DNA from: Candidatus Iainarchaeum sp.
Lineage (GTDB): Archaea > Iainarchaeota > Iainarchaeia > Iainarchaeales > CSSED10-239
Assembly: GCA_037441475.1 (NCBI GenBank)
Contig: JBBISB010000001.1
Coordinates: 156,418-188,417, forward strand
Length of the DNA: 32,000 nucleotides
Direction of reading: 5' to 3'
Shown here: positions 1 through 17,733 of the stretch, piece by piece
How the letters are laid out: the number at the start of each line of letters is the position of its first letter
Position numbering within the stretch: position 1 is the stretch's first letter
Position numbers and translations under genes: made by a program
Notes under the pieces: generated by a model
Database searches by the model: none
Told to the model about the DNA's origin: nothing
What the model saw: the letters and a program-made list of their open reading frames with translations, nothing else

Positions 1-2121
1 GTTAAACCACTTTGCATTTCTTAAAGTCTTGTTTGAAAGATCAGTTGTTTGTCCTGAACATGGAGTGTATGAAGTTGATCCAATAGTTTCAGACTTAGCG
101 TATCTTACTTCCTTAATAAATAAAGCATCCTCTAAAACAGTATAAGTGGTTGTACCACATACTGGGTTTGGTGCATTTCCTATTCTTAAGTGTGCTACAA
201 CTTTTGAAAACTTTTTAGTAACATTTAATGAATATCTAGCAGTTACTTGCATACCTGGAGTTACAGAGTTTATTTTTTCTCCTAAAGCATTATAGAAACC
301 TAAAAACTCAATACCTGATGTTTGTGAAATTCTTGATGGTAAAGTAAATGAAAGATTAACAATCTCATTTGCATTAATCTCATATCTTGAAGTTATAAAT
401 TTAGAATCAAAATTATCAATAACAAAGTATACTTGCTTATCTGCTCTTATCTTTATTAAAGTAAAACCCTCTGCGTTTGTAGATGTGGTTTTATCTGCTA
501 AGATACTATCGTTTAAAGTATCATAAACATATACGTTTCCTTGGTAGAAATCCCCAAACTCAGTTTTTAAAGTTAAGTTAAAGGTTCCTTCTCCAATTGT
601 CATCTTTATTACTTGTTCATTTATTTGTTGTTCAACAATTCTAAATGGATTTGTAAACTCAGAAGTAAATTGTCCTTTAGATGAATCAAGCTTATATGTT
701 CTACTTATATCTAAGTTTGTTAAAACAGCTTTACCATAAACATCAGCAGTTATTGTTTGAAGAATAATGTTTTCTTCAGCATCCCATAGTCTAATGGTTG
801 CAAAATCAACTGGTTTAAGTAAATTATCTTGAACTGTTATAACAAGGCTTCTTAAGTTTTCATTAGTTATTGGGTTTAAAGAGATTTGTTTTACAGAGTC
901 ACTTATTCTTAAGTTATTCTCTGTTTTTAAAATATAATTAGGATTATTAAAAACAACCTTGTAAGTTATGTTTTCTTCAACACCGAAATTTACAAGACCT
1001 TCTTTGTTTGAGATTAATGTTTTTACAAGTGTGCTTGTTTTGTATAAAGAAACTGAAACATTTTCAATAGCTTCTTTTGTTTTAGAATCAATTACTTTAA
1101 ATTTAAGTTGACCAATATATGCCTTTGTTAAAAGAACATCTTTATTTTGAAGAGCTGAATCAACAATTGTTATTTGTATATTTTCAAGTTCTGTTATTGG
1201 TCTGTATCTATCATCATTATCATATATAACAACTCTGTATGTTCCTATTGTTATGTTTTCAAAAAGAACAATACCGTTTGTGTTTGTAGTTGCTTCTCTT
1301 ACAACTTGACTTTGCATATTAACAATTGAAACACTAACATTTGAAATTGGTGTTTTTAAATCATTATCTAAAACTTTAATCGATGCATTACCTGTTTTCT
1401 TTTCTGCAAAGCTTAACTCAACATCTCCTGATAAACCATCTTCGTTTACTGCAACAGAACCAACTGCATTAACTGTGGATGATTCTATTGAAACTTGTAA
1501 GTAACCACAATCAGCAGGTATGTCTGTTAAGGTTAAAGAACCGTCGTTTGTTAAAAGATTATTTTTTCTATAATTACTGTTATTTGAACAAGTGATTGTT
1601 GAAACTGTTAAAGGAGAATTATATAGTTCGTTATTTGATTTAAAATATATTGTTTTTGAAACTGTACTAACTGTTAATTTAAGATAAACTGGATAGTTAT
1701 TCTTTTTACTAAAGTTAATAGTTAAAGGAGTCTCTATTTGGTATTTAGAACTTTTAATACCTAAAGGCATTTCCTCTTTCTTAATACCAGTAACCTCTGC
1801 TATTCCTAAAGAGTTTGTTACAAGAAGTTTTGGAGAGTTGTTAAATAATATTTCTAAACTCTCATTTGAGATTGGTTTATTTTGGGAGTCTACAAAAGTT
1901 AAAGAATAGGTCTGATCAGTAACAACTGAAGATCCAAATAATAAGAATGCTAAAAATACTATTAATAAAAGTATTATAAGATTGAATAATAGGAAGGTTG
2001 GAATTCCGTTCTTTTCTAAAGGATCTACAATTTTATATAAATTGATTCCCTTTTTTTCTAATCTATCAAGAAATGCAAAGTATTTCTCTTCTTGCCTGTA
2101 GTAAAAAGATTTTAGACCCAT
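1..2121 (-). CDS. Giant membrane-anchored surface protein, paralog of the 2696-aa protein. Partial: the N-terminal 707 aa are present and the C-terminus lies beyond the window start.
   Basis: My own translation of the minus strand is open for all 707 codons, from ATG at 2121 (MGLKSFYYRQEEKYFAFLDRLEKKGINLYKIVDPLEKNGIPTF...) to position 1. A TM helix (LLFNLIILLLIVFLAFLLF) is followed by about six ~85-aa beta-sandwich repeats. These resemble carboxypeptidase-regulatory/Ig-like domains (pattern v.V.d....pi.n..v.l......T...G...f). Next comes an IEF.G...H.R.G segment that also occurs in the 2696-aa protein. The gene is absent from the ORF track because it is edge-truncated. Confidence 0.8.
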   Translation of the reverse strand, partial: MGLKSFYYRQEEKYFAFLDRLEKKGINLYKIVDPLEKNGIPTFLLFNLIILLLIVFLAFLLFGSSVVTDQTYSLTFVDSQNKPISNESLEILFNNSPKLLVTNSLGIAEVTGIKKEEMPLGIKSSKYQIETPLTINFSKKNNYPVYLKLTVSTVSKTIYFKSNNELYNSPLTVSTITCSNNSNYRKNNLLTNDGSLTLTDIPADCGYLQVSIESSTVNAVGSVAVNEDGLSGDVELSFAEKKTGNASIKVLDNDLKTPISNVSVSIVNMQSQVVREATTNTNGIVLFENITIGTYRVVIYDNDDRYRPITELENIQITIVDSALQNKDVLLTKAYIGQLKFKVIDSKTKEAIENVSVSLYKTSTLVKTLISNKEGLVNFGVEENITYKVVFNNPNYILKTENNLRISDSVKQISLNPITNENLRSLVITVQDNLLKPVDFATIRLWDAEENIILQTITADVYGKAVLTNLDISRTYKLDSSKGQFTSEFTNPFRIVEQQINEQVIKMTIGEGTFNLTLKTEFGDFYQGNVYVYDTLNDSILADKTTSTNAEGFTLIKIRADKQVYFVIDNFDSKFITSRYEINANEIVNLSFTLPSRISQTSGIEFLGFYNALGEKINSVTPGMQVTARYSLNVTKKFSKVVAHLRIGNAPNPVCGTTTYTVLEDALFIKEVRYAKSETIGSTSYTPCSGQTTDLSNKTLRNAKWFN

Positions 2122-2325: not shown

Positions 2326-4002
2326 TTATTGAGCAACACACCCTGCTGTCCCTGGTAACCCTGCTTCGTAACTTTTACATCTCCATCCTGATGTCAGAGG
2401 ATTATTTAAAATTACTTGGTTTTGAAAATATCCTGGGGTTCCAAAGCTAAATGTTTGAGAAGGATTAAAAAAAGAATAACTTGCATAATCATCTTCTAAT
2501 TGCACATAGATATTTTTATAATCTTCTGCAAGGATATATCTTTCATCCTGGTCTTCAAATTTAAATAAAATATTTATTTTTTCTATTTTGCTACACTTTA
2601 AATTAAAATTTTTATTATCTTGAGAAATATTAGTAGGGTCTCTTAAAATAAAAATATTATTATCATTATTTAAAGAAAGTCCAATATTTGAAGCTTTATT
2701 ATATTGTAATGGATTAAAAATTACAGGTGTTATTGATGAGTCCCCTTGAATACCTCCAGCAGAAGGTTCTGATAAAACCTCTTTTGTGACTTTTGAAACA
2801 TCAATTACACTTACATTACAGATATTTAAACCATTTTGTGAAACAACAGAGTTTCTACACACCCCAATACCATCATTTACTGATTTAAGGTTATTTCCTG
2901 CATAGATTTGTACTGGTGTTCTTGCAGAAACATTATTTTTAATAGTTGTCTTAACAAGATCTTCAAAAACAGGTTTTAAATTTTCTGATGTTTGAAGAGA
3001 ATAACTATTATTTCCTGAAAGATTAATATTTGTACCAACTACAGTATACCCTCCGCCGTTGTTTGCCTTAACTCCTGAAACTGATGTTGGTTTTGTACAA
3101 ACATCCGAAAAATAATTTTTATTAGTAGTAATAAAAAGATCTTCTCTTAACCCACAACTATCAATATCACAAACCCCAAGCTTTGCACTGTTTAAAGTGT
3201 AATGGATGTATGGGTTAAAGAAACCTTGAGAGGTTGAAGAACGATTTAATATTTCACTTTGATCTTTTTTTTCGAGCTCAGCATCAAGAGCAAAGTTTCT
3301 AACAGTCCTCATAGCTTGAAACCCTCTCCAAGGAATATATATCTTATACTCTCTTCTTGCAAAAACTGGTCTTTGAATAACCTCATCATTTTGATTTCTT
3401 TTAACAACAATCATTGGAAGTTTTTCATAGTCCTCTGCAGATAAGTTTCTAGTGTCTATTGTAAAATATAAAGTTCCTAAACAATTTACACTATTCTGCT
3501 CACAATCAACAACTTTTAACTTATTATCTCCTGCTGCAACAAAAGAAGCTTTAATAATTCTAGATAATTCTATTTTATCATAATCAGGAACTTGAATACC
3601 ATACCCTATAGGTGGGTTTGTATATAATAAACTACTTATAACGTTTTGTGCAAAGAAATTTTCAAATTGATTATCAAAAAAAATATCATCTGCATAATAT
3701 TTTACAAAACTATCCCAATCAAGCATCACTTGTTCTCTTTGAATTTTAATTTGATTATCAGGGTTACTTCTAAACTTTATCCATTGTTCTCTAAAAGAAA
3801 CAACAAAGTTATTAAAAGCATCAGCTCTTGAAATATCTGCAATAGTAATTAGATCAGAAGTTCTTGATTGATCATCAATTAAGGATAAATAGTTTTCTTC
3901 GGTCTGTACCATGTTATATACAAAAACAATTGTTATGGAAAGTAGCATTAAAGAGATTAATGCTGTAAAAAGATTAAATCCTTTTTTGTTTTTTATAAAC
4001 AT
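2326..4002 (-). CDS. Secreted or surface Cys-rich protein (558 aa) with a type IV pilin-like (class III signal peptide-like) N-terminus
   Basis: Long ORF between the two giant genes. The N-terminus is MFIKNKKGFNLFTALISLMLLSITIVFVYNMV: basic residues, then G-F, then a ~22-residue hydrophobic helix. The rest is hydrophilic and N/S/T-rich with paired cysteines (DCEQNSVNC, GVCDIDSCG, GVCRN...NIC, WRCKS...GC). I recognise no enzymatic motif. Confidence 0.75.
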   Translation of the reverse strand: MFIKNKKGFNLFTALISLMLLSITIVFVYNMVQTEENYLSLIDDQSRTSDLITIADISRADAFNNFVVSFREQWIKFRSNPDNQIKIQREQVMLDWDSFVKYYADDIFFDNQFENFFAQNVISSLLYTNPPIGYGIQVPDYDKIELSRIIKASFVAAGDNKLKVVDCEQNSVNCLGTLYFTIDTRNLSAEDYEKLPMIVVKRNQNDEVIQRPVFARREYKIYIPWRGFQAMRTVRNFALDAELEKKDQSEILNRSSTSQGFFNPYIHYTLNSAKLGVCDIDSCGLREDLFITTNKNYFSDVCTKPTSVSGVKANNGGGYTVVGTNINLSGNNSYSLQTSENLKPVFEDLVKTTIKNNVSARTPVQIYAGNNLKSVNDGIGVCRNSVVSQNGLNICNVSVIDVSKVTKEVLSEPSAGGIQGDSSITPVIFNPLQYNKASNIGLSLNNDNNIFILRDPTNISQDNKNFNLKCSKIEKINILFKFEDQDERYILAEDYKNIYVQLEDDYASYSFFNPSQTFSFGTPGYFQNQVILNNPLTSGWRCKSYEAGLPGTAGCVAQ

Positions 4003-4259: not shown

Positions 4260-7200
4260 TTAATTTGCTTTAACAGGGTCAATACATTTGTCAACTCTTA
4301 AAACATCTGTTAAAGCTATTATTGAAGGAGCTTGAGAGTTGTAAGGTCTTACATCAACAATATATCTTGACTTATACTCTTGTGAACTTTCAGGAGCAAG
4401 ATAATCTACCTCTGTTATATAGAAGATATTCTTTTCAAAGACAATAGGTGTTTTAATCTCAATTGAGCTATTAAGACCAGTCATACCTTTATCTCTTAAA
4501 CCATTAATACCAACTATGTTACCCGCAATTCCACAACCAAGTCCTCTTAAAAATCCACCAGCACCTCTAACCCACTTTAGTTTACTTGAAGCAGTTGGTA
4601 CTTTTGAACCGCTTATCTTTGTAAAGTCATCTATAACTTCGTCAGGAACTAAATAATTTCCAGCACCATCAGGAGCTAAACTACTTATCTTAATACTCAT
4701 TGCTTCTAATGAAGCTTTTTGTGCTTTTGCATCAGCTAGTTTAGTTTTTAATGAAGCTAAGTCTGATGATGCTTTTCTAGATGCTCTGTCCACAGCAGTA
4801 ATTTTATTAGGGTCTGATTTTACTTTTTTAGGATTAAAAGAAGATCTTGCATTATTTTTTTCAAGATCAGTAATCTTTCTTTCTAAAACTTTAATTGAGT
4901 CATCTGCTTCTTTTATTAAACCTTTCTTAGAATCACCTATTGTGTCTAAAAGATTATTTAGTGAAGCGTCATCAATTACATTAACTGTACTTGTAGTTGT
5001 TGTTCCAGGTCCAGCTCCTGCTGCAACACTTCTGTCATAACCTTGTAACTTAGATAAATAGCCATTATTTTTGGTTAGACTATTAACTGCATCAACTTGA
5101 CTTAAATGTCCTGATGGATAAACTCCAGAATGAGGAAATTGACTTCTTGAAACAACTTGTAATAAATCATCTAATTGAGCACTAGTTATTTTTGAATAAT
5201 TAATTTTTGCGTTTGCACCACTTCCTGATATTACATCTGGATTATTCATCAAAGCCTCAATTACATTATCTGCTATTCCAGTAGTATTAGTAAAGGATGT
5301 CGGAACTTGATTAAAATATATTCCTGCTGATTGAACATTATTTACTGTAACCATTTGAGGGGATGAAAGATAATTATTTGAAATAACTTTAATATAATCA
5401 TCTAAAAAATTTATTGCCTTTTCAGAAGGTGCTCTAGGTCTTACTAAATTAGGGGTTGTTCCAGGTGTTGTAGTTGTTACTGTTTGAGATACAAAAGGAT
5501 CATCACCTAAACTTATTGTTGCCTCTCCAAGATTTAATGGAGTTGCAGCAGCAGAAGATCCTGCCTTAAAAGAACCTGCCATTACAGATCCAACAATTCC
5601 TGTAAACCACTCTTCAACCTCTCCAAACAAAGGACCTAAAAACTTAAGTTCAGGTTCATTAAATAACCATCCTAAAAACTTATCAATAAGCCATCCTAAA
5701 CCGCCCTCTCCACCTGTTAAAGCAGATGCAAAGATTTGAAGAGCAGGAAGACCACATGAAAAGCCTAAACAATCAATTCCAATACCTGCAATAGATACTG
5801 GCATTAAAACTGCTGACAAACCATAACAACCAGCACAAGTTGCAGAACATCTTAAGAAATACTGTCCAGCATTGTTTAAGCCTTTATTTATTTTCGAGGT
5901 TGTCTTTTGTTCAGGGTCCTTTAAATCACAACCAAGTTGTTCATAGTTATAAAAGAAATCTCCATTATACTTTCCAGAGTCCATAACCTTTTGTAAAGTA
6001 GAACACATCTCTTCTTTTTCAGCAGCATTATACTCTTTCTTCCAATCAACTAAGGCAGTGATGTTAAGAGGAAGATTTTTATCTTCATCTTTTTTATTAT
6101 TCTCTAAAAGAATATTATTATAAACTTCTAAAAGATATTCAGAAGGAGTTATAGCACATGAAGCTAAAGTAACCTCTGCAATTGCACTCCTGTTACCAAT
6201 AGTACCATCAGAAGAATAAATACTTGTAGCTGTAACAGTTGCTTTTTGACCAACCAAAGTATTCATTTCAGAGGGTGTTAATGGAGTTACACACATAAAA
6301 AAATTATTATCTTGGTTTTGAAGAACAGAAAGGCTAAGAGGCTCTTGAACACCATCATCTTTATTTTTCTTAAAACCAATAGTGCCACCAGGAACTTGTG
6401 TTGATGAAATTTTTAAAGTCTCATCCATTGATGATTTTATTTTCATTAAAGTACAAGAAGATGTTTCTTGTAAAGTTAAAGAAACTTCCTTTTCAGTAAA
6501 AGCTAAATCTCCAGCCTTAACTAAATCAAGGATAAGCATATATGTTTGATCTTTAGAAACACAAACCTTTGCACTATAATCGTTCTTTGTTATCATTGAG
6601 CTTATAACATTTACAAACTCTCTTCTTACCTTGTCAGGAGTTAAGCCATCTGCTGTTTGATATTGACTATTAAGAAGAACATTTATTTGTTCAGGGTTTG
6701 CTTTTTCATAAACTTGTTTATCATTAAAAGATATTTTTGCAAGAGCATTTTTATTTTCAGAAATAACACCTGAAGAAACATTTAAGGTACTGTTTCTTGT
6801 AGATAAAACATCTCTATTGTAAACATATCTTAAATCTACTTGATCTGTCTTAAACTTACCTACACCCTTGATTAAGTCTTTTGAAATATTTTCATCACCA
6901 GTAAACAAAGTAAGCCATGTTCCTTGTCTATTGTTTTTATCTAAAGTTAAATCCCATGGAAGGAAGTTTAAATAATTCATTATCTTTTTATCACAGTGAG
7001 AAGTTTTTTCATACTTTAAAACATTTATGAAATAATATGCTCTCTCTGGATAAATATAATCAGGAGAAGCTGCTATAAAACCATCAAGCTCAATTGTGTA
7101 CTTACCACAACCACTCAATTGATTTGAAACAAACACTTTATTTCCACCAGCATAAACACCTAAAGAAGTATTCCCTGCACTATTAAATGGATTTGTTTCA

Positions 7201-10200
7201 ACAAAGTAATTTTTAAAACCATAATTTGATTTTGAAAGAATAGCTCTTACAAGCTCAGTAGAGACTACATCATTTTGCATATAGAAAGTAAACTCAATTG
7301 GCTCAACATCTCCACCAAGCTCTGATATCTTACAATACCCTCTTGCAGCATCAACTAGAGGACATCCTGTGTTCATTGTCTTTGCTTGTGCTTGAGAAGA
7401 CATTTGTTTTATTTGGTTTTGAAGTTCACTTACCTTCTTTAAAATATACTCTGTTGAAGAAACAGCATCACAGTAACCTGATTCTTCAGAACATGCACCA
7501 ATTGAGATTAAAGGTCTACTTAAGGTTGTTGTTTCTTTTAAGTCTTCACAAACTGGAAGAGAAGAATTTATTGTAACAATATTATCTTTAGCTTGATCTT
7601 CAAAGACATCTTTGATATTTATAGAAACTGTAAAGTCCTCTGAAGTTACAGGATTACCAGAGTTAAGTAATCTTCCTATTATTACCATTGGCATTTTAGG
7701 AGAGCCACCTAAAGAGCTTGCTGTAAGCTCTAAGCTATAGGTTGCTGATTGATTAGGGTATATTAAATTATTACCAGAGGTTGGAATTATTCTAAAAGGA
7801 TTAGCACCAAAAGTCTCTGTATAACCATCTTGTTTTTTATCAATACCAACAACAGAAACTGGTTCTGCACAGTAGTTTGTTAAGGTAATGTTTCTTGCTC
7901 TCTTTTCTCCAACCTTTAAAGTATAATCTAAATTTTTATTACTTACCTTCAAACAGTTAGGAGAGGAGATTGTAAAAATAATCTGGGTGGTTGCTGTTAT
8001 TGGGTTATTAATACCAGCAGCTTTTCCAGTAACTAAAATAAATGCATTATCAGCAGTTGATTTATTTATATTAACTGTAAACTGTAAATCAATAGGTATT
8101 GATGCACCAGGCTCTAAAACAGATACCTCTCTAGGATATTCTTTAATACCTATGTTTGAAGATACCATCTTAGGATATTGACTTATCTGTATATCTGTTA
8201 TTGGAACTGTTCCTATATTTTTAATCATGAACCTTGTTGCATTAACAGCAGATTGCTGAGGATGAAGTTGTGAGATTGGAACCTGTATTAATGTAGGCAT
8301 TATCCATAAAGCCTTACTTAGATCTAAAAGATCAACATTTAAAGTTGATGGGGAAACAGAGTATAAGCTGTTATGCCATAGGATATTATAAGTAAATTTT
8401 CTTTGTTGTTTAAGGTTTGATTTATTTTTAATAATAACATCATAAACCTTCTCTTCTCCTGGAAGAACAGTTACATGAGCAAGGGAAAGCTCTAAACCAT
8501 TGTTTGAAGCTGAGGAGGTTAACACTGATTGTGGAGTAAAGGTTATAGCTTGTGAACAGTTGTTTTTAATAATAAAGAAAGTAGTATTTTCTGTACTCTC
8601 TGTTGTTGAATCTACTTTTGAAGAATAGTAGGTATAATAGTTAGGATCTGTATAGTTTACAGTATTCCTTGAAGAAGAATAATTTTGAGTATAGTTTTGA
8701 GATGCTAAATAATCTGAGTAATTGGAGTAGGTTTGAGAAGGTGCAAGTAAAAGATTACTTCTTTGTGTATTTCCAGCATAATTGTAGTTTGTGAAAGGAG
8801 TGTTATACACATTTGGTGCAGTATACTTAAGGTTTAAACCTACAAAGGAGTTAACTGCATTTGGAGTTATCTCAATACAGTCGCTAACCAAAAGACCTTT
8901 GTTTATCCTAATAGGGACAATCTTTGTAATCTCTCTAGGACCAATGGTTGCATAGATAGGAACATTTGCAAATGCTGTTTCAAACAATATATCTTTTGAT
9001 ACAGTGATTACAACCTCGTAGTTTTGAGAGGAATTTTTATTAATAAAAGGATTACCTCTAATATCTATAAAGATTTTATCAGATCCATCAACCCAGACTG
9101 GTTCTCCAAACCTGATGTTAGTTGCTTGGTAAACACCGTTGTTTTGTAAAGTAAATCTTGAAGAGGAGGTTATCTGGTCAAGACCAAGATTGATTAATAC
9201 CTCAGGAGGTGTTAATGTTAATAAAGAATCATCAACTATGAAAATTTGTTTTTTATAAGGAACATAACCATAACTTTCAACTAAGACGTTTACAGAGGAG
9301 ACATTAAATTTATTTTCAATAGTATAGTTTCCATTTCTACCATTACTTCCCTCTCCCTTAACTGAGGAAATAAAGGCTCCTCTATCATCATAGAAAGAGA
9401 TGAATGCATTTTCAATAGGTTTTAAAGAAACTGAATCAATAACCTCTATATTAAACTTAGAACCGTATGAAACAAAGATATCAGGTGTAAAAATAACCTT
9501 CATTTCTTTTTTATCAAAAACATTAAAGCTTAGTCTATCATTAAAGACTTGAGAACCTAAGATAGCATCTGTTCCCTTAAGATCAATGTATGCTGTTCCT
9601 ATCTCCTTTGAAATAAATGTTAAATAAATTTTCTTTAAACTGTTTTGGTTTATTGAAAGATTATCCCTTACTGCTTCAAAGTTTGAAGAATCATAAGTTG
9701 TGCTTTGGTTATTTAGAGTATCTGTAAAAAGATTAAAGGAGATTAAAGGAAAGCTCTTTGAAGTTTCAGCTAAAAGATTTAACTGTGAGTTTTTTAAAGA
9801 ATAGATGCTTGTTTCAAGAGAGTAGTTTTCTCCTTTAATAGCATAAAAGTCTTCAATATTAAACTCATTATCTTTTGAGTCAATTATCTTATAAGAAACA
9901 CAAACATCACCAGAACAATTTAAAGGAACATTGAAAAGATCAATTGAAACTTCTTTTGTTTGTGCATAAAGAGCTCCCTTAAGATTATTTGAATAGTTTT
10001 GTTTTAAAGTTGTATCAATAGGATCTCTATAGTAAAGTTTATTTTCTTCAATCAATGCCCTGTACTTAAAGATTAGTTTTGTAACAGACATATCAACTGC
10101 ATTAACCTTAACCTTTATTTGTTTGTTTCCTAAAGGAACATCTGAAGCCCATTTAAGCTCAAGCCATTTATTTATTATCTGTGAAGAACCTTCATTAAGA

Positions 10201-12350
10201 GAGTCAATACCTTGCATTCCCGGGGCAGGCTCACTATTATAAGTTGTCCCATATTTAAAGTTAGTTATGTCCATTGCAGAGAAACCAGTAATACCGTAAC
10301 TCATTAGTTCTGAATCTGTTTGAGTATCATCACCAGCTCTGATATGCACTTCTCCTTTATATGTTTTTTCAGGGAAAAGAACATCAAAAACTAAATAGTA
10401 TTCTTTGTCTGTTGTTAAGTAGTTTGTTTTAATACCTTTAGAGTCAACCACACCTGCAAACTCAATTACAGGGTAATCAGAGTAGTTAACTTGTTTGTTT
10501 AAATCAAGTCTTAAGTAACCACCATTATCTGCTTGGTCTGCTGAAAAGTTAATAACAGATTTATTTCCATTCTCGTCTGTATATTCAGCAATTAAGTCCT
10601 TGTAACCTTCTGTGTTAAATATTATTTCTTCACCTAAAGAAATATTTCCATCAAAAAGAACAGTTCCATCTTTTGTTCTTATTAAAAGATTTCCTGAAGT
10701 TATTTTCATTCCGTTTTCATCATAAAAATCAAGTTTTATCATTTTTGAAGCATTATCAACAACAAAGATGATTTTATTTTCTCTTAAAGGATTTATTTTT
10801 ATATTTTCAAAAACTTCTGTTTCTCCAACCATGGCATAAACCCTGTAGTCCTTGTTTACTCTTAAAGGTAAAGCAAAAGAACCTGTTATGTCTGTTTGAA
10901 GAGAGGTGTTGTAAGGAACTTCTACTTCTGTTTCTGGATTGAAGTTTATAAGTTCATAGATTTTTAAAAAAGCTTTTGTTACTGGAAGATTTTTTTCATC
11001 AACAACAAAGATATTAAGTATTGCACTATTTGAAACATCTATTCTTTCTAAGATAAACTCAGCTTTTGTTGTTTGTCGTAAATCTACTGTTTGATTTTCA
11101 CAAAAATAATCTACTTTACATGCTGTTATTAAGATTGGTTTTTCAGAGGTTATTCCTTTAAAGCTTATTTGACCTAAAGCATCTGTTTTTCCAGAATCAA
11201 TAACTGTGTTATCTTTATTATATAATGTTATTAAAACATCCTCTAAAGAAAAGAAATTTGTTTTTGATTTAGTTGAAATATCAATAAAGTTTCCACCAAG
11301 CTCTAAGACAACAATAAATGTTTCTTCAGAGTTGATTATTCTTAAGGAAATGTTTTCATCACTTATAGCTGTTCTGTAACCTTCCTTTTTAACCCTGTAA
11401 GAGATTGTTTCTCCAGTGTCTATGTATGCTAAGGCCTTACCATCTATTGTTTTTTGATTTGCAACCTCTTCTCCACCTAAATTAAAGATTAAAACTTCTG
11501 CATTATCAATTACTTTTTGAGAAGTGTCTAAGACAACAAAGGTAACTATGCTTTTTCCTTCAAAGGAAAGTGAAGAGATATCCATCTCAATAACTTTCTC
11601 TTGTTCTTTTGAAGTTATTCTATAGTTTGTTTCTCTATAGTCTTCATAACCATCTGCCTTTATTAAAATTTCTAAATCTTTGTTTAAAGGTACTTCTAAG
11701 GTTATAAAATGATTTTGATATTGATTTACAATTCCTTCTTTACTTTCTTGTCTATTGTTAATAGAGAAGTTAACTTTTGCAGAGCCTGCAGGAATTGTTT
11801 TTCTATTTTCTCTATCTATTAGTTTAATTTTTAAAACTCCATACTCTATTGATTCTGTAAAAACAATTGAGATGTTTTGTTTCTTCTCTGTAATGGTTAT
11901 AACTTTTGTAAAGTCAGGGTGTCCTGCTTTTGTTGAATAAAAGGTATATGATTCTCCTAACTTAAGTTTTATTTTTTTAGAAAAACCATTTTCAATAGTT
12001 CCTTTAAAAACATCTTTATCTTTGCTTGATATTTTTAAGTAAACATCAGATAATGAGTTTCCTTGATAATCAGTAACTGAAAAAGTCAAGGTTGATTGGT
12101 TTGAGAAAGAAAAGAAAATTAAAAAGATTATTATGAAAAGTAATAATAGTAAAATAGATGCAACAATTGCAAAGGCAGGTAAACCTTTTTCTTCTAAGTA
12201 ATTATTAAAATCGTTTAGAGGGATTCCTTTTTCTGAAAGCCAGTTTGAGGTGCTTGCATATTTATCTTCAAGATAATTATAGACCCTTGAGAAAATATTT
12301 TGTGAACTGCTTTCTTCTGATGACGCCATATTTTTCTTTTCTTTAACCAT
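4260..12350 (-). CDS. Giant surface protein (2696 aa). Order: N-terminal cytoplasmic motif, TM anchor, six beta-sandwich repeats, CARDB/ASH-like modules, N/Y/S-rich linker, Cys-rich region, hydrophobic Gly/Cys-rich segment, coiled coil.
   Basis: An uninterrupted 8.1-kb ORF. TM helix at residues ~61-82 (AIVASILLLLLFIIIFLIFFSF). Six ~85-aa repeats have a carboxypeptidase-regulatory-like pattern. At least four modules carry an (F/I).(I/L).N.G signature (FTLQNNG, FMIKNIG, ITLTNYC, FIIKNNC), typical of CARDB/ASH/PapD-like beta-sandwiches. The C-terminal features are described in the findings. Antisense ORFs inside it are shadows. Confidence 0.9.
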   Translation of the reverse strand: MVKEKKNMASSEESSSQNIFSRVYNYLEDKYASTSNWLSEKGIPLNDFNNYLEEKGLPAFAIVASILLLLLFIIIFLIFFSFSNQSTLTFSVTDYQGNSLSDVYLKISSKDKDVFKGTIENGFSKKIKLKLGESYTFYSTKAGHPDFTKVITITEKKQNISIVFTESIEYGVLKIKLIDRENRKTIPAGSAKVNFSINNRQESKEGIVNQYQNHFITLEVPLNKDLEILIKADGYEDYRETNYRITSKEQEKVIEMDISSLSFEGKSIVTFVVLDTSQKVIDNAEVLIFNLGGEEVANQKTIDGKALAYIDTGETISYRVKKEGYRTAISDENISLRIINSEETFIVVLELGGNFIDISTKSKTNFFSLEDVLITLYNKDNTVIDSGKTDALGQISFKGITSEKPILITACKVDYFCENQTVDLRQTTKAEFILERIDVSNSAILNIFVVDEKNLPVTKAFLKIYELINFNPETEVEVPYNTSLQTDITGSFALPLRVNKDYRVYAMVGETEVFENIKINPLRENKIIFVVDNASKMIKLDFYDENGMKITSGNLLIRTKDGTVLFDGNISLGEEIIFNTEGYKDLIAEYTDENGNKSVINFSADQADNGGYLRLDLNKQVNYSDYPVIEFAGVVDSKGIKTNYLTTDKEYYLVFDVLFPEKTYKGEVHIRAGDDTQTDSELMSYGITGFSAMDITNFKYGTTYNSEPAPGMQGIDSLNEGSSQIINKWLELKWASDVPLGNKQIKVKVNAVDMSVTKLIFKYRALIEENKLYYRDPIDTTLKQNYSNNLKGALYAQTKEVSIDLFNVPLNCSGDVCVSYKIIDSKDNEFNIEDFYAIKGENYSLETSIYSLKNSQLNLLAETSKSFPLISFNLFTDTLNNQSTTYDSSNFEAVRDNLSINQNSLKKIYLTFISKEIGTAYIDLKGTDAILGSQVFNDRLSFNVFDKKEMKVIFTPDIFVSYGSKFNIEVIDSVSLKPIENAFISFYDDRGAFISSVKGEGSNGRNGNYTIENKFNVSSVNVLVESYGYVPYKKQIFIVDDSLLTLTPPEVLINLGLDQITSSSRFTLQNNGVYQATNIRFGEPVWVDGSDKIFIDIRGNPFINKNSSQNYEVVITVSKDILFETAFANVPIYATIGPREITKIVPIRINKGLLVSDCIEITPNAVNSFVGLNLKYTAPNVYNTPFTNYNYAGNTQRSNLLLAPSQTYSNYSDYLASQNYTQNYSSSRNTVNYTDPNYYTYYSSKVDSTTESTENTTFFIIKNNCSQAITFTPQSVLTSSASNNGLELSLAHVTVLPGEEKVYDVIIKNKSNLKQQRKFTYNILWHNSLYSVSPSTLNVDLLDLSKALWIMPTLIQVPISQLHPQQSAVNATRFMIKNIGTVPITDIQISQYPKMVSSNIGIKEYPREVSVLEPGASIPIDLQFTVNINKSTADNAFILVTGKAAGINNPITATTQIIFTISSPNCLKVSNKNLDYTLKVGEKRARNITLTNYCAEPVSVVGIDKKQDGYTETFGANPFRIIPTSGNNLIYPNQSATYSLELTASSLGGSPKMPMVIIGRLLNSGNPVTSEDFTVSINIKDVFEDQAKDNIVTINSSLPVCEDLKETTTLSRPLISIGACSEESGYCDAVSSTEYILKKVSELQNQIKQMSSQAQAKTMNTGCPLVDAARGYCKISELGGDVEPIEFTFYMQNDVVSTELVRAILSKSNYGFKNYFVETNPFNSAGNTSLGVYAGGNKVFVSNQLSGCGKYTIELDGFIAASPDYIYPERAYYFINVLKYEKTSHCDKKIMNYLNFLPWDLTLDKNNRQGTWLTLFTGDENISKDLIKGVGKFKTDQVDLRYVYNRDVLSTRNSTLNVSSGVISENKNALAKISFNDKQVYEKANPEQINVLLNSQYQTADGLTPDKVRREFVNVISSMITKNDYSAKVCVSKDQTYMLILDLVKAGDLAFTEKEVSLTLQETSSCTLMKIKSSMDETLKISSTQVPGGTIGFKKNKDDGVQEPLSLSVLQNQDNNFFMCVTPLTPSEMNTLVGQKATVTATSIYSSDGTIGNRSAIAEVTLASCAITPSEYLLEVYNNILLENNKKDEDKNLPLNITALVDWKKEYNAAEKEEMCSTLQKVMDSGKYNGDFFYNYEQLGCDLKDPEQKTTSKINKGLNNAGQYFLRCSATCAGCYGLSAVLMPVSIAGIGIDCLGFSCGLPALQIFASALTGGEGGLGWLIDKFLGWLFNEPELKFLGPLFGEVEEWFTGIVGSVMAGSFKAGSSAAATPLNLGEATISLGDDPFVSQTVTTTTPGTTPNLVRPRAPSEKAINFLDDYIKVISNNYLSSPQMVTVNNVQSAGIYFNQVPTSFTNTTGIADNVIEALMNNPDVISGSGANAKINYSKITSAQLDDLLQVVSRSQFPHSGVYPSGHLSQVDAVNSLTKNNGYLSKLQGYDRSVAAGAGPGTTTTSTVNVIDDASLNNLLDTIGDSKKGLIKEADDSIKVLERKITDLEKNNARSSFNPKKVKSDPNKITAVDRASRKASSDLASLKTKLADAKAQKASLEAMSIKISSLAPDGAGNYLVPDEVIDDFTKISGSKVPTASSKLKWVRGAGGFLRGLGCGIAGNIVGINGLRDKGMTGLNSSIEIKTPIVFEKNIFYITEVDYLAPESSQEYKSRYIVDVRPYNSQAPSIIALTDVLRVDKCIDPVKAN

Positions 12351-12568: not shown

Positions 12569-12904
12569 TTATTTAGAGTTTGAAACTCTAATAATTGCAA
12601 CTATTGAAACAATTAATGCTGCTGGTGCTACAAAGTAAACAAGGTTTACTAAGATCCCTCTTAAGACATCTCCCACAACAGGAATTGCATTAATTGAGTT
12701 ACTGGTTGCTATAAATGTTATTGAGGCTATTAAGAAAAGAGAGATATTTCTATCTTCAATGTTTAAAAGACCAATAACAAGACCTAATACTATTAAAACA
12801 GTTGAAAGCCATACAGGGTGACTTATACCATAGATAAGTCCAAAAATAATTGAAAGTAAGATACCACCAAGGAAAGCAAAAGCTCCTATTTTTTCAAGTT
12901 TCAT
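12569..12904 (-). CDS. Small integral membrane protein (111 aa, about 4 TM helices), function unknown
   Basis: The ORF is almost entirely hydrophobic helices (GAFAFLGGILLSIIFGLIYGI, WLSTVLIVLGLVIGLL, LFLIASITFIATS, LVYFVAPAALIVSIVAII). Confidence 0.65.
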   Translation of the reverse strand: MKLEKIGAFAFLGGILLSIIFGLIYGISHPVWLSTVLIVLGLVIGLLNIEDRNISLFLIASITFIATSNSINAIPVVGDVLRGILVNLVYFVAPAALIVSIVAIIRVSNSK

Positions 12905-13053
12905 ATTTTATCTTTAACTCCATTTTTTGTAATTAAGTTATTTTCTTCTAATATCATAATTACATGTTACCTATATTATTTTTAATACAAAATATTTAAA
13001 AAGCCTGCATAAAAATGAAAATAAGGACTTTTAGGTAGAAAATATTAAATAAG

Positions 13054-13131
13054 GGCAGAAAAGAAGAAGGGAGATTATTTATTAAAATCAACCTTTTCTT
13101 TTTTAAAATAAGTAGGCAGAAAAGAAGAAGG
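13054..13131. repeat. Two copies of a purine-rich 17-bp direct repeat GGCAGAAAAGAAGAAGG (13054..13070 and 13115..13131), within longer ~32-bp imperfect units
   Basis: Read directly. The extended units are AAATAAG-G-GCAGAAAAGAAGAAGG-GAGATTA and AAATAAGTAGGCAGAAAAGAAGAAGGTTAGAGATTA, with starts 61 bp apart. They lie in the 428-bp gap between the wHTH regulator gene and the small membrane protein gene. Confidence 0.5.
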
Positions 13132-13332
13132 TTAGAGATTAAACATACTCTTTTACCTAACATTCTTTTTTATTAGTTTAGATTTGTTTTAAACAGACTT
13201 TTTTTGTTAAAAGGAAAAAATTACTTTTTAAAAATAAAAACAAAGAAGAAAGGTATAAAAGATGTAAAAAGGGGTTATTTACATTTTTTTAAAAAAGGGG
13301 ATTTTTATTTAAAATGATTTTTTATAAAAAAA

Positions 13333-13794
13333 TCATCTAACAATAAAGTATACCTTTCTTCCTGCTTGAATCTTTTTTAAGTATCCTTCTTTTACAAGTC
13401 TATTTAATCTTTGAGAAGCTGCATTTGATCCCTTGTAATTAAACTCAGTCTGTACTTCTTCTGCATCAACCTTTTGCTTTGTTCTTATAAAAGAAATTAT
13501 CTTATCATCAATCTCTGCTAAAATATTAATTGTATCTAAATTACTAGTATCTTCTGACTCTTTCTTTTGCTTAAATGCAAACTGAAGAGAATCATACTTT
13601 TCATAAAGATCTTTTAATATTGAGTTTGTCTTTTTTCTTTCTTCTAAAAGCTGATGTAGAATGACTGAGAGGATTAATGGATCATTAAACTTCTCCTGGA
13701 TCTGAATAAGATCACTCAAACCCATTTCTTGAGAATCTTCTTTTAGTAACTGTTCTAAAAACAATTGCTTTGTGAGATTGTCATTTTTAGTCAT
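13333..13794 (-). CDS. Winged-helix DNA-binding protein (putative transcriptional regulator, 153 aa)
   Basis: The C-terminal ~55 aa (DKIISFIRTKQKVDAEEVQTEFNYKGSNAASQRLNRLVKEGYLKKIQAGRKVYFIVR) fit the MarR/TrmB-like wHTH pattern, meaning helix-turn-helix followed by a beta wing. The N-terminal half is helical and acidic. Confidence 0.6.
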   Translation of the reverse strand: MTKNDNLTKQLFLEQLLKEDSQEMGLSDLIQIQEKFNDPLILSVILHQLLEERKKTNSILKDLYEKYDSLQFAFKQKKESEDTSNLDTINILAEIDDKIISFIRTKQKVDAEEVQTEFNYKGSNAASQRLNRLVKEGYLKKIQAGRKVYFIVR

Positions 13795-16659: not shown

Positions 16660-17733
16660 TTAAAACGCCCTTGATTCTCTTCTTGGAAGACGAAGACCAA
16701 CTCTTTTTGTCTTTTCTAAAACATTTCTAACAATTAAATCTATTTCTTGTATTTTTAATCTACTTTGAAGATCACTCTCTATTAAAGGAGCAGGGTAGAT
16801 ATATCTTTTGTTAAACGAAGAAACTGAAGAGATGTTTGAAACAATAAAGTCAGTATACTCCTTTAAAGACAAACCAAACTCCTTAAAGTAAATAAACTCT
16901 ATCCTTAAAGGATAGTCCTCTTCTGAAAGCTTTAAGTAACAAACATAAAGGTTTTCATAAATCTCTTTTGGAAAATCCTTTAATATAGGGTGCTCCTTTA
17001 AGTCCTCTGCATACTTAAAAACACATGTTCTTTGATTTTTAGAAAGTAAAGAGAAAACTAAAAATGAATCAGATAAGTTATACTCAATCTCCTCTTTTAT
17101 ATAATTATTTTTTAAAATATTAAAGAAACGATCAGCTCTAGAGTCTTCAATACATCCTACAAGAAAAATCTTTCTTTCTTTAAATATATTATATAAAGAA
17201 ATAAATAACTCTATTAAAGAAGAATAATCTTTAAAAAATTTAGAATCCTTTGAAGGTTTTGAAAGATACTGTGGGATAATAGATCCATCCATTAACATAA
17301 AGTCTAATTTTTTTGTTTTTTCAATAATCTCTTTTGAAAGAGATAGTTCTTTTTTAAGTCTTAAAATAGAGGTGTTCCAAATAATCTCTTCAACCTCTAA
17401 AGAAGAAGTGGTTAAGTATGGTTTTGGAAGGTTATAGGTTTTTGGAAAGTATTTAACAGAAGAAAGTTTTGAGTCCTTGTAATTAAAAACAGCACCTGCT
17501 TCTTTAATGATTATTAGGTTTGCAAAATTAAATTGCTTGTTTACAAAACCAGAATCAACTCCTGCAAAACTTAGGTTTTGATTTTTTTCAATGGTTATTG
17601 GGTTTACTATTTTTTCTTCTTTGTTATAAGGAGATTGATTGATAAAAAGATTATTCTTTTTAAAGATAGAAACAATCTTTTGATTTCTTTCATGTGTCTT
17701 TAAAATCAAGTTAATAATATTTTCTTCAATCAT
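16660..17733 (-). CDS. nurA: NurA-domain 5'-3' nuclease homolog (357 aa)
   Basis: Motifs are spaced as in the NurA family: FAGVDSGF (N-terminal catalytic Asp), LMDGSIIP (D-G-S motif), LVGCIEDSRADRF, and C-terminal YPAPLIESDLQSRL (YP.pL..[HD] motif). Its stop is 3 nt from the start of the kinase-like ORF. Confidence 0.7.
   Translation of the reverse strand: MIEENIINLILKTHERNQKIVSIFKKNNLFINQSPYNKEEKIVNPITIEKNQNLSFAGVDSGFVNKQFNFANLIIIKEAGAVFNYKDSKLSSVKYFPKTYNLPKPYLTTSSLEVEEIIWNTSILRLKKELSLSKEIIEKTKKLDFMLMDGSIIPQYLSKPSKDSKFFKDYSSLIELFISLYNIFKERKIFLVGCIEDSRADRFFNILKNNYIKEEIEYNLSDSFLVFSLLSKNQRTCVFKYAEDLKEHPILKDFPKEIYENLYVCYLKLSEEDYPLRIEFIYFKEFGLSLKEYTDFIVSNISSVSSFNKRYIYPAPLIESDLQSRLKIQEIDLIVRNVLEKTKRVGLRLPRRESRAF

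Follow-up and report, generated by a model that had tools for sequence, protein, structure and literature searches.

We analysed a 32,000-nucleotide stretch of DNA, hereafter the window, from Candidatus Iainarchaeum sp. (GenBank assembly GCA_037441475.1, contig JBBISB010000001.1, here C1, positions 156,418 to 188,417 of the forward strand). Iainarchaeota, formerly Diapherotrites, is a phylum of the DPANN archaea. The genome comprises 769 kb at 28% G+C and contains 4,894 open frames of at least 40 codons. Five very large genes, the giants G1 to G5, are co-oriented on the minus strand in one 42-kb operon and take up about 5% of the ~0.8-Mb genome; G1 and the start of G2 fall within the window. 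The subject of this study is a segment of about 40 residues, hereafter the tag, that immediately precedes the N-terminal membrane helix of the giants. The giants, and the relevant segments of the two that lie in the window, are as follows (all on the minus strand).

Window 4260..12350, minus: G1, 2,696 residues (open reading frame and translation), a predicted membrane-anchored protein of type II (N-in) and gene 1 of the five-giant operon.
Window 12171..12296, minus: predicted cytoplasmic tag of G1, residues 19-60 (AlphaFold2; match to the tag-only profile at E = 1.5e-8).
Window 12231-12296, 12216-12230, 12189-12215 and 12171-12188, minus: elements of the G1 tag, namely predicted helix 1, the turn K-G-I-P-L, predicted helix 2, and the turn K-G-L-P followed by A-F.
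Window 12105..12170, minus: putative signal-anchor transmembrane helix of G1, residues 61-82 (Kyte-Doolittle peak 3.48; helix in the AlphaFold2 model).
Window 1..2121, minus: G2, N-terminal 707 residues; the gene leaves the window, and the full open reading frame at C1:151576-158538 encodes 2,321 residues.
Window 1993..2118, minus: predicted cytoplasmic tag of G2, residues 2-43, with helix 1, the turn K-G-I-N-L, helix 2, the turn N-G-I-P, and T-F.
Window 1927..1992, minus: putative signal-anchor transmembrane helix of G2, residues 44-65 (hydrophobicity; AlphaFold2 helix).
C1:146421-151532, minus: G3, 1,704 residues, found by a profile from the N-termini of G1 and G2.
C1:136195-143472, minus: G4, 2,426 residues, found by the same profile.
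C1:126874-133260, minus: G5, 2,129 residues, found by the same profile.

Each giant has a single N-terminal hydrophobic span of about 22 residues, which is strong in G1, and no membrane helix was found at the C-terminus of any of the five. The ectodomains are very long, members of the family reaching ~1,600-3,200 residues, and are paralogous to one another. That of G1 gave matches to Ig-like and CarboxypepD_reg-like domains, and G2 contains Ig-like domains with significant scores. BLASTP aligned the N-termini of G1 and G2 at 39% identity over 54 residues (E = 6e-5). When members from the related genome AR10 were included, identities of 21-30% extended over more than 1,000 residues, so that the giants are true paralogues.

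An earlier note on this DNA had quoted two peptides, which we located on the minus strand as residues 24-82 of G1 (12105-12281) and residues 6-62 of G2 (1936-2106). In these peptides it had seen a duplicated L-x-(E/K)-K-G-I-P motif ahead of a membrane anchor, shared by two giant proteins. Both do contain E-(D/E)-K-Y, two copies of (K/N)-G-(I/L)-(P/N) and the transmembrane helix, and the strict pattern search that the note had proposed matched only G1 and G2 among all open frames of the genome. The motif proved to be real and far beyond chance, but the tagged giants number five rather than two: a profile built from the tag, with no transmembrane columns, matched exactly five proteins of the genome at E = 1.5e-8 to 5.9e-18 (3.6e-14 for G2), and the next frame followed at E = 0.7. 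Because this profile matched the five giants only, the 14 other open frames of at least 900 residues lack the tag.

The tag was then followed across genomes. It was present in 37 of 41 relatives and in 205 of 215 Iainarchaeota genomes, including all 58 of those that are at least 90% complete; the 10 genomes without a match are 65-86% complete. Copies per genome typically numbered 3-7 in the order and 1-3 in more distant class-level relatives, nearly always at the start of open frames of 1,200-3,200 residues. An exhaustive HMM search of 1.84 billion representative proteins returned 851 clusters at E <= 1e-3. Among the best 150 of these, the tag lay within the first 25 residues in 133, and 94 were at least 1,000 residues long; 41 were shorter than 300 residues and are apparently fragments. 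Scanning 185,579 species genomes with a pattern confirmed 178 loci, of which the best 80 were Iainarchaeum-type records. The motif is thus present in related giants, and in these searches no case was found in unrelated proteins or without a following membrane helix; neither of the two outcomes that the earlier note had named as weakening its idea was therefore observed.

Five records carried other labels at NCBI (Micrarchaeota, Thaumarchaeota, Chloroflexi or Falkowbacteria; L033, L034, L052, L053 and L060). Their genomes measure 1.1-1.3 Mb with 4-7 tags each, and the coordinates of the two Micrarchaeota-labelled records agree with those of genomes assigned by GTDB to the order of the window. 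On these grounds they look like mislabelled Iainarchaeota bins and not like spread to other phyla.

The consensus of 150 representative proteins reads G-L-K-x-F-Y-Y-x-L-E-D-K-Y-Y-x-x-L-D-K-I-D-x-K-I-P-V-Y-K-V-I-D-P-I-D-K-V-(I/F)-P-S-F, followed by about 22 hydrophobic residues. Over its length of about 40 residues, conservation reaches at least 90% at 13 positions and is complete at one Pro. The tag contains an internal 13-residue repeat, (L/I)-D-x-I-D-x-x-(I/V/F)-P-x-(Y/F), at positions 17-27 and 30-40. By sequence comparison, the duplication described in the earlier note is this repeat in its G1/G2-lineage form, with an extra Gly before each I-P that is also found in the AR10 orthologue of G1. 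The general form of the pair is (D/E)-x-K-I-P / D-K-V-(I/F)-P.

Each paralogue lineage keeps its own flavour on the shared core, even across clusters that differ by 50% identity. The G2 type has K-G-I-N and G-I-P-T-F, the G3 type is shortened, and the G5 type has F-F-F-E-D and N-K-L-T-D. The G5 lineage also carries 100-170 extra residues before the tag, forming a small domain and a Lys/Glu-rich linker, and a few members have extra membrane helices there, so that the tag lies 100-230 residues from the N-terminus in these proteins. Because segments can precede it in this way, the tag is a juxtamembrane and not a strictly N-terminal element. In this pre-tag region of the G5 lineage (C1:132901-133260, minus strand, in the present genome), a conserved domain of about 55 residues is followed by a variable linker of 30-110 residues rich in Lys, Glu and Ser; the extension gave nothing significant in Pfam.

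The earlier note had held that the tag is far better conserved than the ectodomain, and three measures agreed with it. Per column, the tag carries about 3 bits of information, the membrane helix about 1.2 and the first residues of the ectodomain about 1.1. In five orthologous pairs compared with a complete genome of the same genus, the tag was 85-92% identical whereas the whole proteins were 57-66% identical. Synonymous codon differences amounted to 33% in the tag and 20% in the rest of the proteins, and non-synonymous differences to 12% and 39% of codons, being about three times rarer in the tag. By these comparisons, evolution of the tag is about five times more conservative than that of the ectodomain, with synonymous changes accumulating freely. 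Since synonymous changes accumulate in the tag while non-synonymous ones are few, the constraint acts on the protein and not on the nucleotide sequence. These values bear on the reading that the tag is a mere remnant of common ancestry among paralogues, with no function of its own. The true paralogy of the giants over more than 1,000 residues would suit that reading, but within these proteins the conservation of the tag far exceeds that of the remainder while synonymous changes accumulate, and we regard a remnant as highly improbable. Given this paralogy, the tag represents an unusually constrained part of a shared architecture and not a graft on unrelated proteins.

We predicted the structure of the N-termini with AlphaFold2, using an alignment of 85 sequences in two independent runs. 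The G1 model (mean pLDDT 87.8) contained helices at residues 19-40 and 46-54 and the membrane helix at 59-81; the G2 model (mean pLDDT 88.4) contained helices at 2-22, 28-36 and 41-62, in a numbering one lower than that of the protein. The predicted order is a helix of about 21 residues, a 5-residue turn (K-G-I-N-L or K-G-I-P-L), a 9-residue helix, a 4-residue turn (N-G-I-P or K-G-L-P) and a membrane helix of 22-23 residues. In the models, the two KGIP elements are the two turns, and each Pro starts the next helix. The description given in the earlier note has to be broadened: the paralogues number five, the consensus spans the phylum, and the predicted fold has two helices, with the duplicated motif as its two turns.

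On a helical wheel, helix 1 displays a hydrophobic stripe (positions 5, 9, 16 and 20) with flanking Lys. Its most conserved stripe is aromatic and acidic (Y6, E10, Y13, Y14, L17 and D18) and lies about 100 degrees from the hydrophobic one; a variable stripe lies opposite the most conserved one. Both tag helices are amphipathic (hydrophobic moments 1.27 and 2.45 per residue), and the first Ig-like domain begins a few residues past the membrane helix. A purely structural role with no partner would fit these features, in that two amphipathic helices on the inner membrane face would fix the N-in orientation and steady the anchor of a very long stalk under mechanical load. However, Tyr, Asp, Glu and Pro residues that are near-invariant across the phylum exceed the needs of amphipathicity, conservation in helix 1 peaks on a face other than the hydrophobic one, and acidic residues are poor ligands for anionic archaeal lipids. 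We therefore consider a purely structural role unlikely.

For the orientation, we compared charges and hydrophobicity in 79 relatives. Lys and Arg together averaged 5.4 in the tag against 0.95 in the 20 residues past the helix, and the uncharged stretch after P-S-F had a median of 28 residues, which is anchor-like. Because this charge distribution fits the positive-inside rule, the N-terminus is predicted to face inwards; the tag is probably cytoplasmic, consistent with the cytoplasm-facing segment of the earlier note, and the hydrophobic span is probably an uncleaved anchor.

The same region could instead serve export. The tag would then work as an extended N-region, specialised for export, insertion or topology, by which very long ectodomains are routed or paced during co-translational translocation, whether or not it is cleaved later. 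It occurs only on giants, abuts the hydrophobic span, is followed beyond that span by G/S/A/P-rich stretches, and is absent from the ordinary secreted proteins of the operon, which have short signal peptides with small-x-small end sites as judged by eye. Bacteria offer precedents in long conserved signal extensions on very large proteins. The tag would be analogous to the YSIRK-G/S and KxYKxGKxW extensions, and also to ESPR, a conserved N-terminal extension on very large bacterial surface proteins (PMC2805444). The tag is, however, net acidic and aromatic, not basic; the hydrophobic span and the uncharged stretch have the length of an anchor; the tag's distance from the N-terminus in G5-lineage proteins and in some of those with additional membrane helices does not suit such a signal; other large exported proteins of the genome do without it; and flavours specific to each paralogue are not expected of a generic routing signal. 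We therefore regard an export signal as doubtful, though it is the most serious of the alternatives.

Another form of cleavage is suggested by the gene between G1 and G2.

Window 2326..4002, minus: pilin-like protein, 558 residues, with a class III (type IV pilin-like) N-terminus, K-K-G then F-N-L-F.

This gene occupies the same place in the same-genus genome G003 and adjoins the G1 orthologue in AR10, both of which have G1 orthologues; its product gave no match to the tag-only profile and thus lacks the tag. The tag might accordingly be a long leader, cut at P-S / F by a prepilin-type or other dedicated peptidase, after which the giants would join a pilus-like fibre with the neighbouring protein. 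The invariant P-S-F lies exactly at the cytoplasmic edge of the helix, the F-(I/A)-L-F that follows P-S resembles the F-N-L-F / F-T-L-F after K-G in the pilin-like protein, and the pilin-like gene lies within the operon itself. Positions -2/-1 are, however, Pro-Ser and not the (K/R)-(G/A) that the known archaeal prepilin peptidases (PibD, FlaK) need, and the helix of about 22 residues gives way to a short linker and an Ig-like domain with no long pilin alpha-1 helix. A cleaved leader is thus very unlikely.

We favour, tentatively, a reading in which the tag is a cytoplasmic juxtamembrane module that defines the family of giant envelope proteins in Iainarchaeota and acts as a shared docking or assembly handle; it is perhaps the likeliest single account and ranks above the export signal. 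Four points speak for it: the kind of residue that is invariant, the fact that the tag need not sit at the extreme N-terminus, its restriction to giants of one operon, and the flavours specific to each paralogue. The invariant Tyr/acidic face of helix 1 would form a binding surface just under the membrane, the same on all five giants. One common partner, or the tags mutually, would recognise that surface on all five, thereby bringing the giants together and arranging them as a single multi-giant surface apparatus. A candidate for the membrane partner is encoded directly after the last giant.

C1:126464-126823, minus, outside the window: three-helix membrane protein, 120 residues, with three predicted membrane helices and a basic tail.

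Of 41 relatives, 38 have this single-copy protein, and in at least 14 genomes from many families its gene comes immediately after the last tagged giant. As the only constant companion of the giants, it is our candidate partner; Pfam gave no match for it or for the other small proteins of the operon.

Several points weigh against a docking or assembly handle. The basic C-terminal (cytoplasmic) tail of the three-helix protein is not conserved in distant relatives, which argues against contact between tail and tag. When all open reading frames within 5 kb before 80 tagged genes were clustered, no recurrent small cytoplasmic gene appeared upstream in these loci; apart from scattered families, the clusters contained just the giants that come before and a Ski2-like helicase (23 loci). 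Many members carry G, S, A or P residues after the hydrophobic span, which are compatible with signal-peptidase cleavage, and both the topology and the lack of cleavage are deduced from sequence rules alone. The high pLDDT of isolated helices says nothing about packing. The conserved N-terminal extensions of giant secreted proteins in bacteria, moreover, are export-related. The earlier note had proposed a recognition, sorting or docking signal, and the conservation pattern and orientation agree with this proposal; its function, however, we can only infer, since a partner of the tag was sought and none was identified, nor was a pathway found.

A bolder form of this reading, which we put forward as a speculation that may well prove wrong, is that the tag is an undescribed archaeal sorting and assembly signal. 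Its two helices would be read by a dedicated factor, perhaps the three-helix protein of the operon, or the tags might bind one another, and the five giants would be inserted side by side as a fixed surface machine for cell-cell contact in Iainarchaeota. Should the tag prove to be a sorting or assembly signal, it would be the archaeal equivalent of the special signal extensions that giant adhesins carry in bacteria.

Iainarchaeota are uncultured archaea with tiny genomes, and here about 5% of the DNA is spent on five giant surface proteins, of which the tag is the most conserved and most tractable part. It offers a precise signature with which to find and count such giants in metagenomes, including bins filed under other phylum labels at NCBI. 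It is also short enough to serve as bait for the intracellular attachment of the giants, by peptide pull-down or by co-folding against the proteome of ~800 proteins.

Further observations concern the surroundings of the giants. A 964-residue secreted protein, p964, encoded at C1:143493-146384, aligns with the C-terminal ~640 residues of G4 at 24% identity (E = 1e-35). G4 and G5 can likewise be aligned in their C-terminal regions, and a motif around (V/I)-x-(D/E)-(V/L/I)-F ... K-x-C recurs at the C-termini of G2, G4, G5 and p964. Directly adjoining G1 on its upstream side (window 12569-13794) are genes for a 153-residue winged-helix-like protein and a 111-residue membrane protein, an order that is kept in G003 and was not found beside the AR10 orthologue. 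Upstream of G1, the window contains housekeeping or unassigned genes (NurA, M48 peptidase, LemA, PEP synthase-like), with the NurA-domain gene at window 16660-17733. In 23 of the 80 tagged loci (L015, L058 and 21 others), a Ski2/Hel308-like helicase of about 700 residues is encoded on the same strand just upstream of one tagged giant. We also considered the tag as a mimic of the C-terminal peptide of FtsZ, the D-I-P-x-F element that binds SepF. Two FtsZ genes and a single SepF gene are present in the genome; this candidate was dropped, as the two FtsZ proteins end in ...LDIDSV and ...YGLDML, with no I-P-x-F.

We finally compared the tag with known systems. Pfam and NCBIfam searches with the N-termini of G1 and G2 gave nothing significant, a profile search of the PDB with the tag gave no match at E <= 1, and a Foldseek comparison of the AlphaFold2 model with the PDB gave no fold match (best E = 3.2). 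ESPR (PF13018) occurs on autotransporters and two-partner-secretion proteins of proteobacteria, as a basic stretch of about 25 residues within a cleaved Sec signal peptide. Like the tag, it is a conserved N-terminal extension before a hydrophobic core and is confined to very large surface proteins. In contrast to this basic, bacterial and cleaved element, the tag has 40 residues, is acidic and aromatic, is predicted to be two-helical and precedes a span of anchor length; the two N-termini gave no match to PF13018 at Pfam E <= 1, and the host is an archaeon with no outer membrane. YSIRK-G/S and KxYKxGKxW are short N-region motifs that sort large Gram-positive surface proteins to a secretion site or an accessory pathway. 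They are far shorter than the tag, basic, cleaved and bacterial, and neither PF04650 nor TIGR03715 matched the two N-termini.

In archaeal class III signal peptides, as in the tag, a conserved element borders an N-terminal hydrophobic helix on its cytoplasmic side, and a protein with such an N-terminus is encoded in the same operon. The tag differs in its P-S in place of (K/R)-(G/A), with positions -2/-1 occupied by Pro (100%) and Ser (90%), in a far longer leader of at least 40 residues and in the lack of a long pilin helix. A Tat signal of the R-R-x-F-L-K type would show Arg-Arg, which occurs at no consensus position of the tag. The PGF-CTERM/archaeosortase system likewise places a P-x-F signature beside a membrane helix of archaeal surface proteins. 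That signature is C-terminal, lies on the outer face and is followed by a basic tail, whereas the tag is N-terminal and, by charge, cytoplasmic; the giants have no C-terminal membrane helix, and NCBIfam gave no match.

The tag therefore matches no named family, while giants of this kind are already known from Candidatus Forterrea multitransposorum, in which a 42-kb region was described as encoding five large membrane-anchored proteins of >1,800 aa (Probst and Banfield 2018, PMC5905446). Our literature search returned a single sentence on those five giants and nothing on the tag; that account makes no mention of an N-terminal motif, its fold, its repeat or its conservation across the phylum. 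The Forterrea locus belongs to the same phylum and likewise has five co-oriented giants in about 5% of a ~0.8-Mb genome, and the window is a close relative of it. In the genomes G000, G003 and AR10, several paralogues of the same orientation share one cluster, with a small multi-pass membrane protein encoded behind them. With the tag and a single membrane helix, a long paralogous ectodomain, and clustered paralogues accompanied by this small protein, the proteins described here are members of the Forterrea-type giant family.

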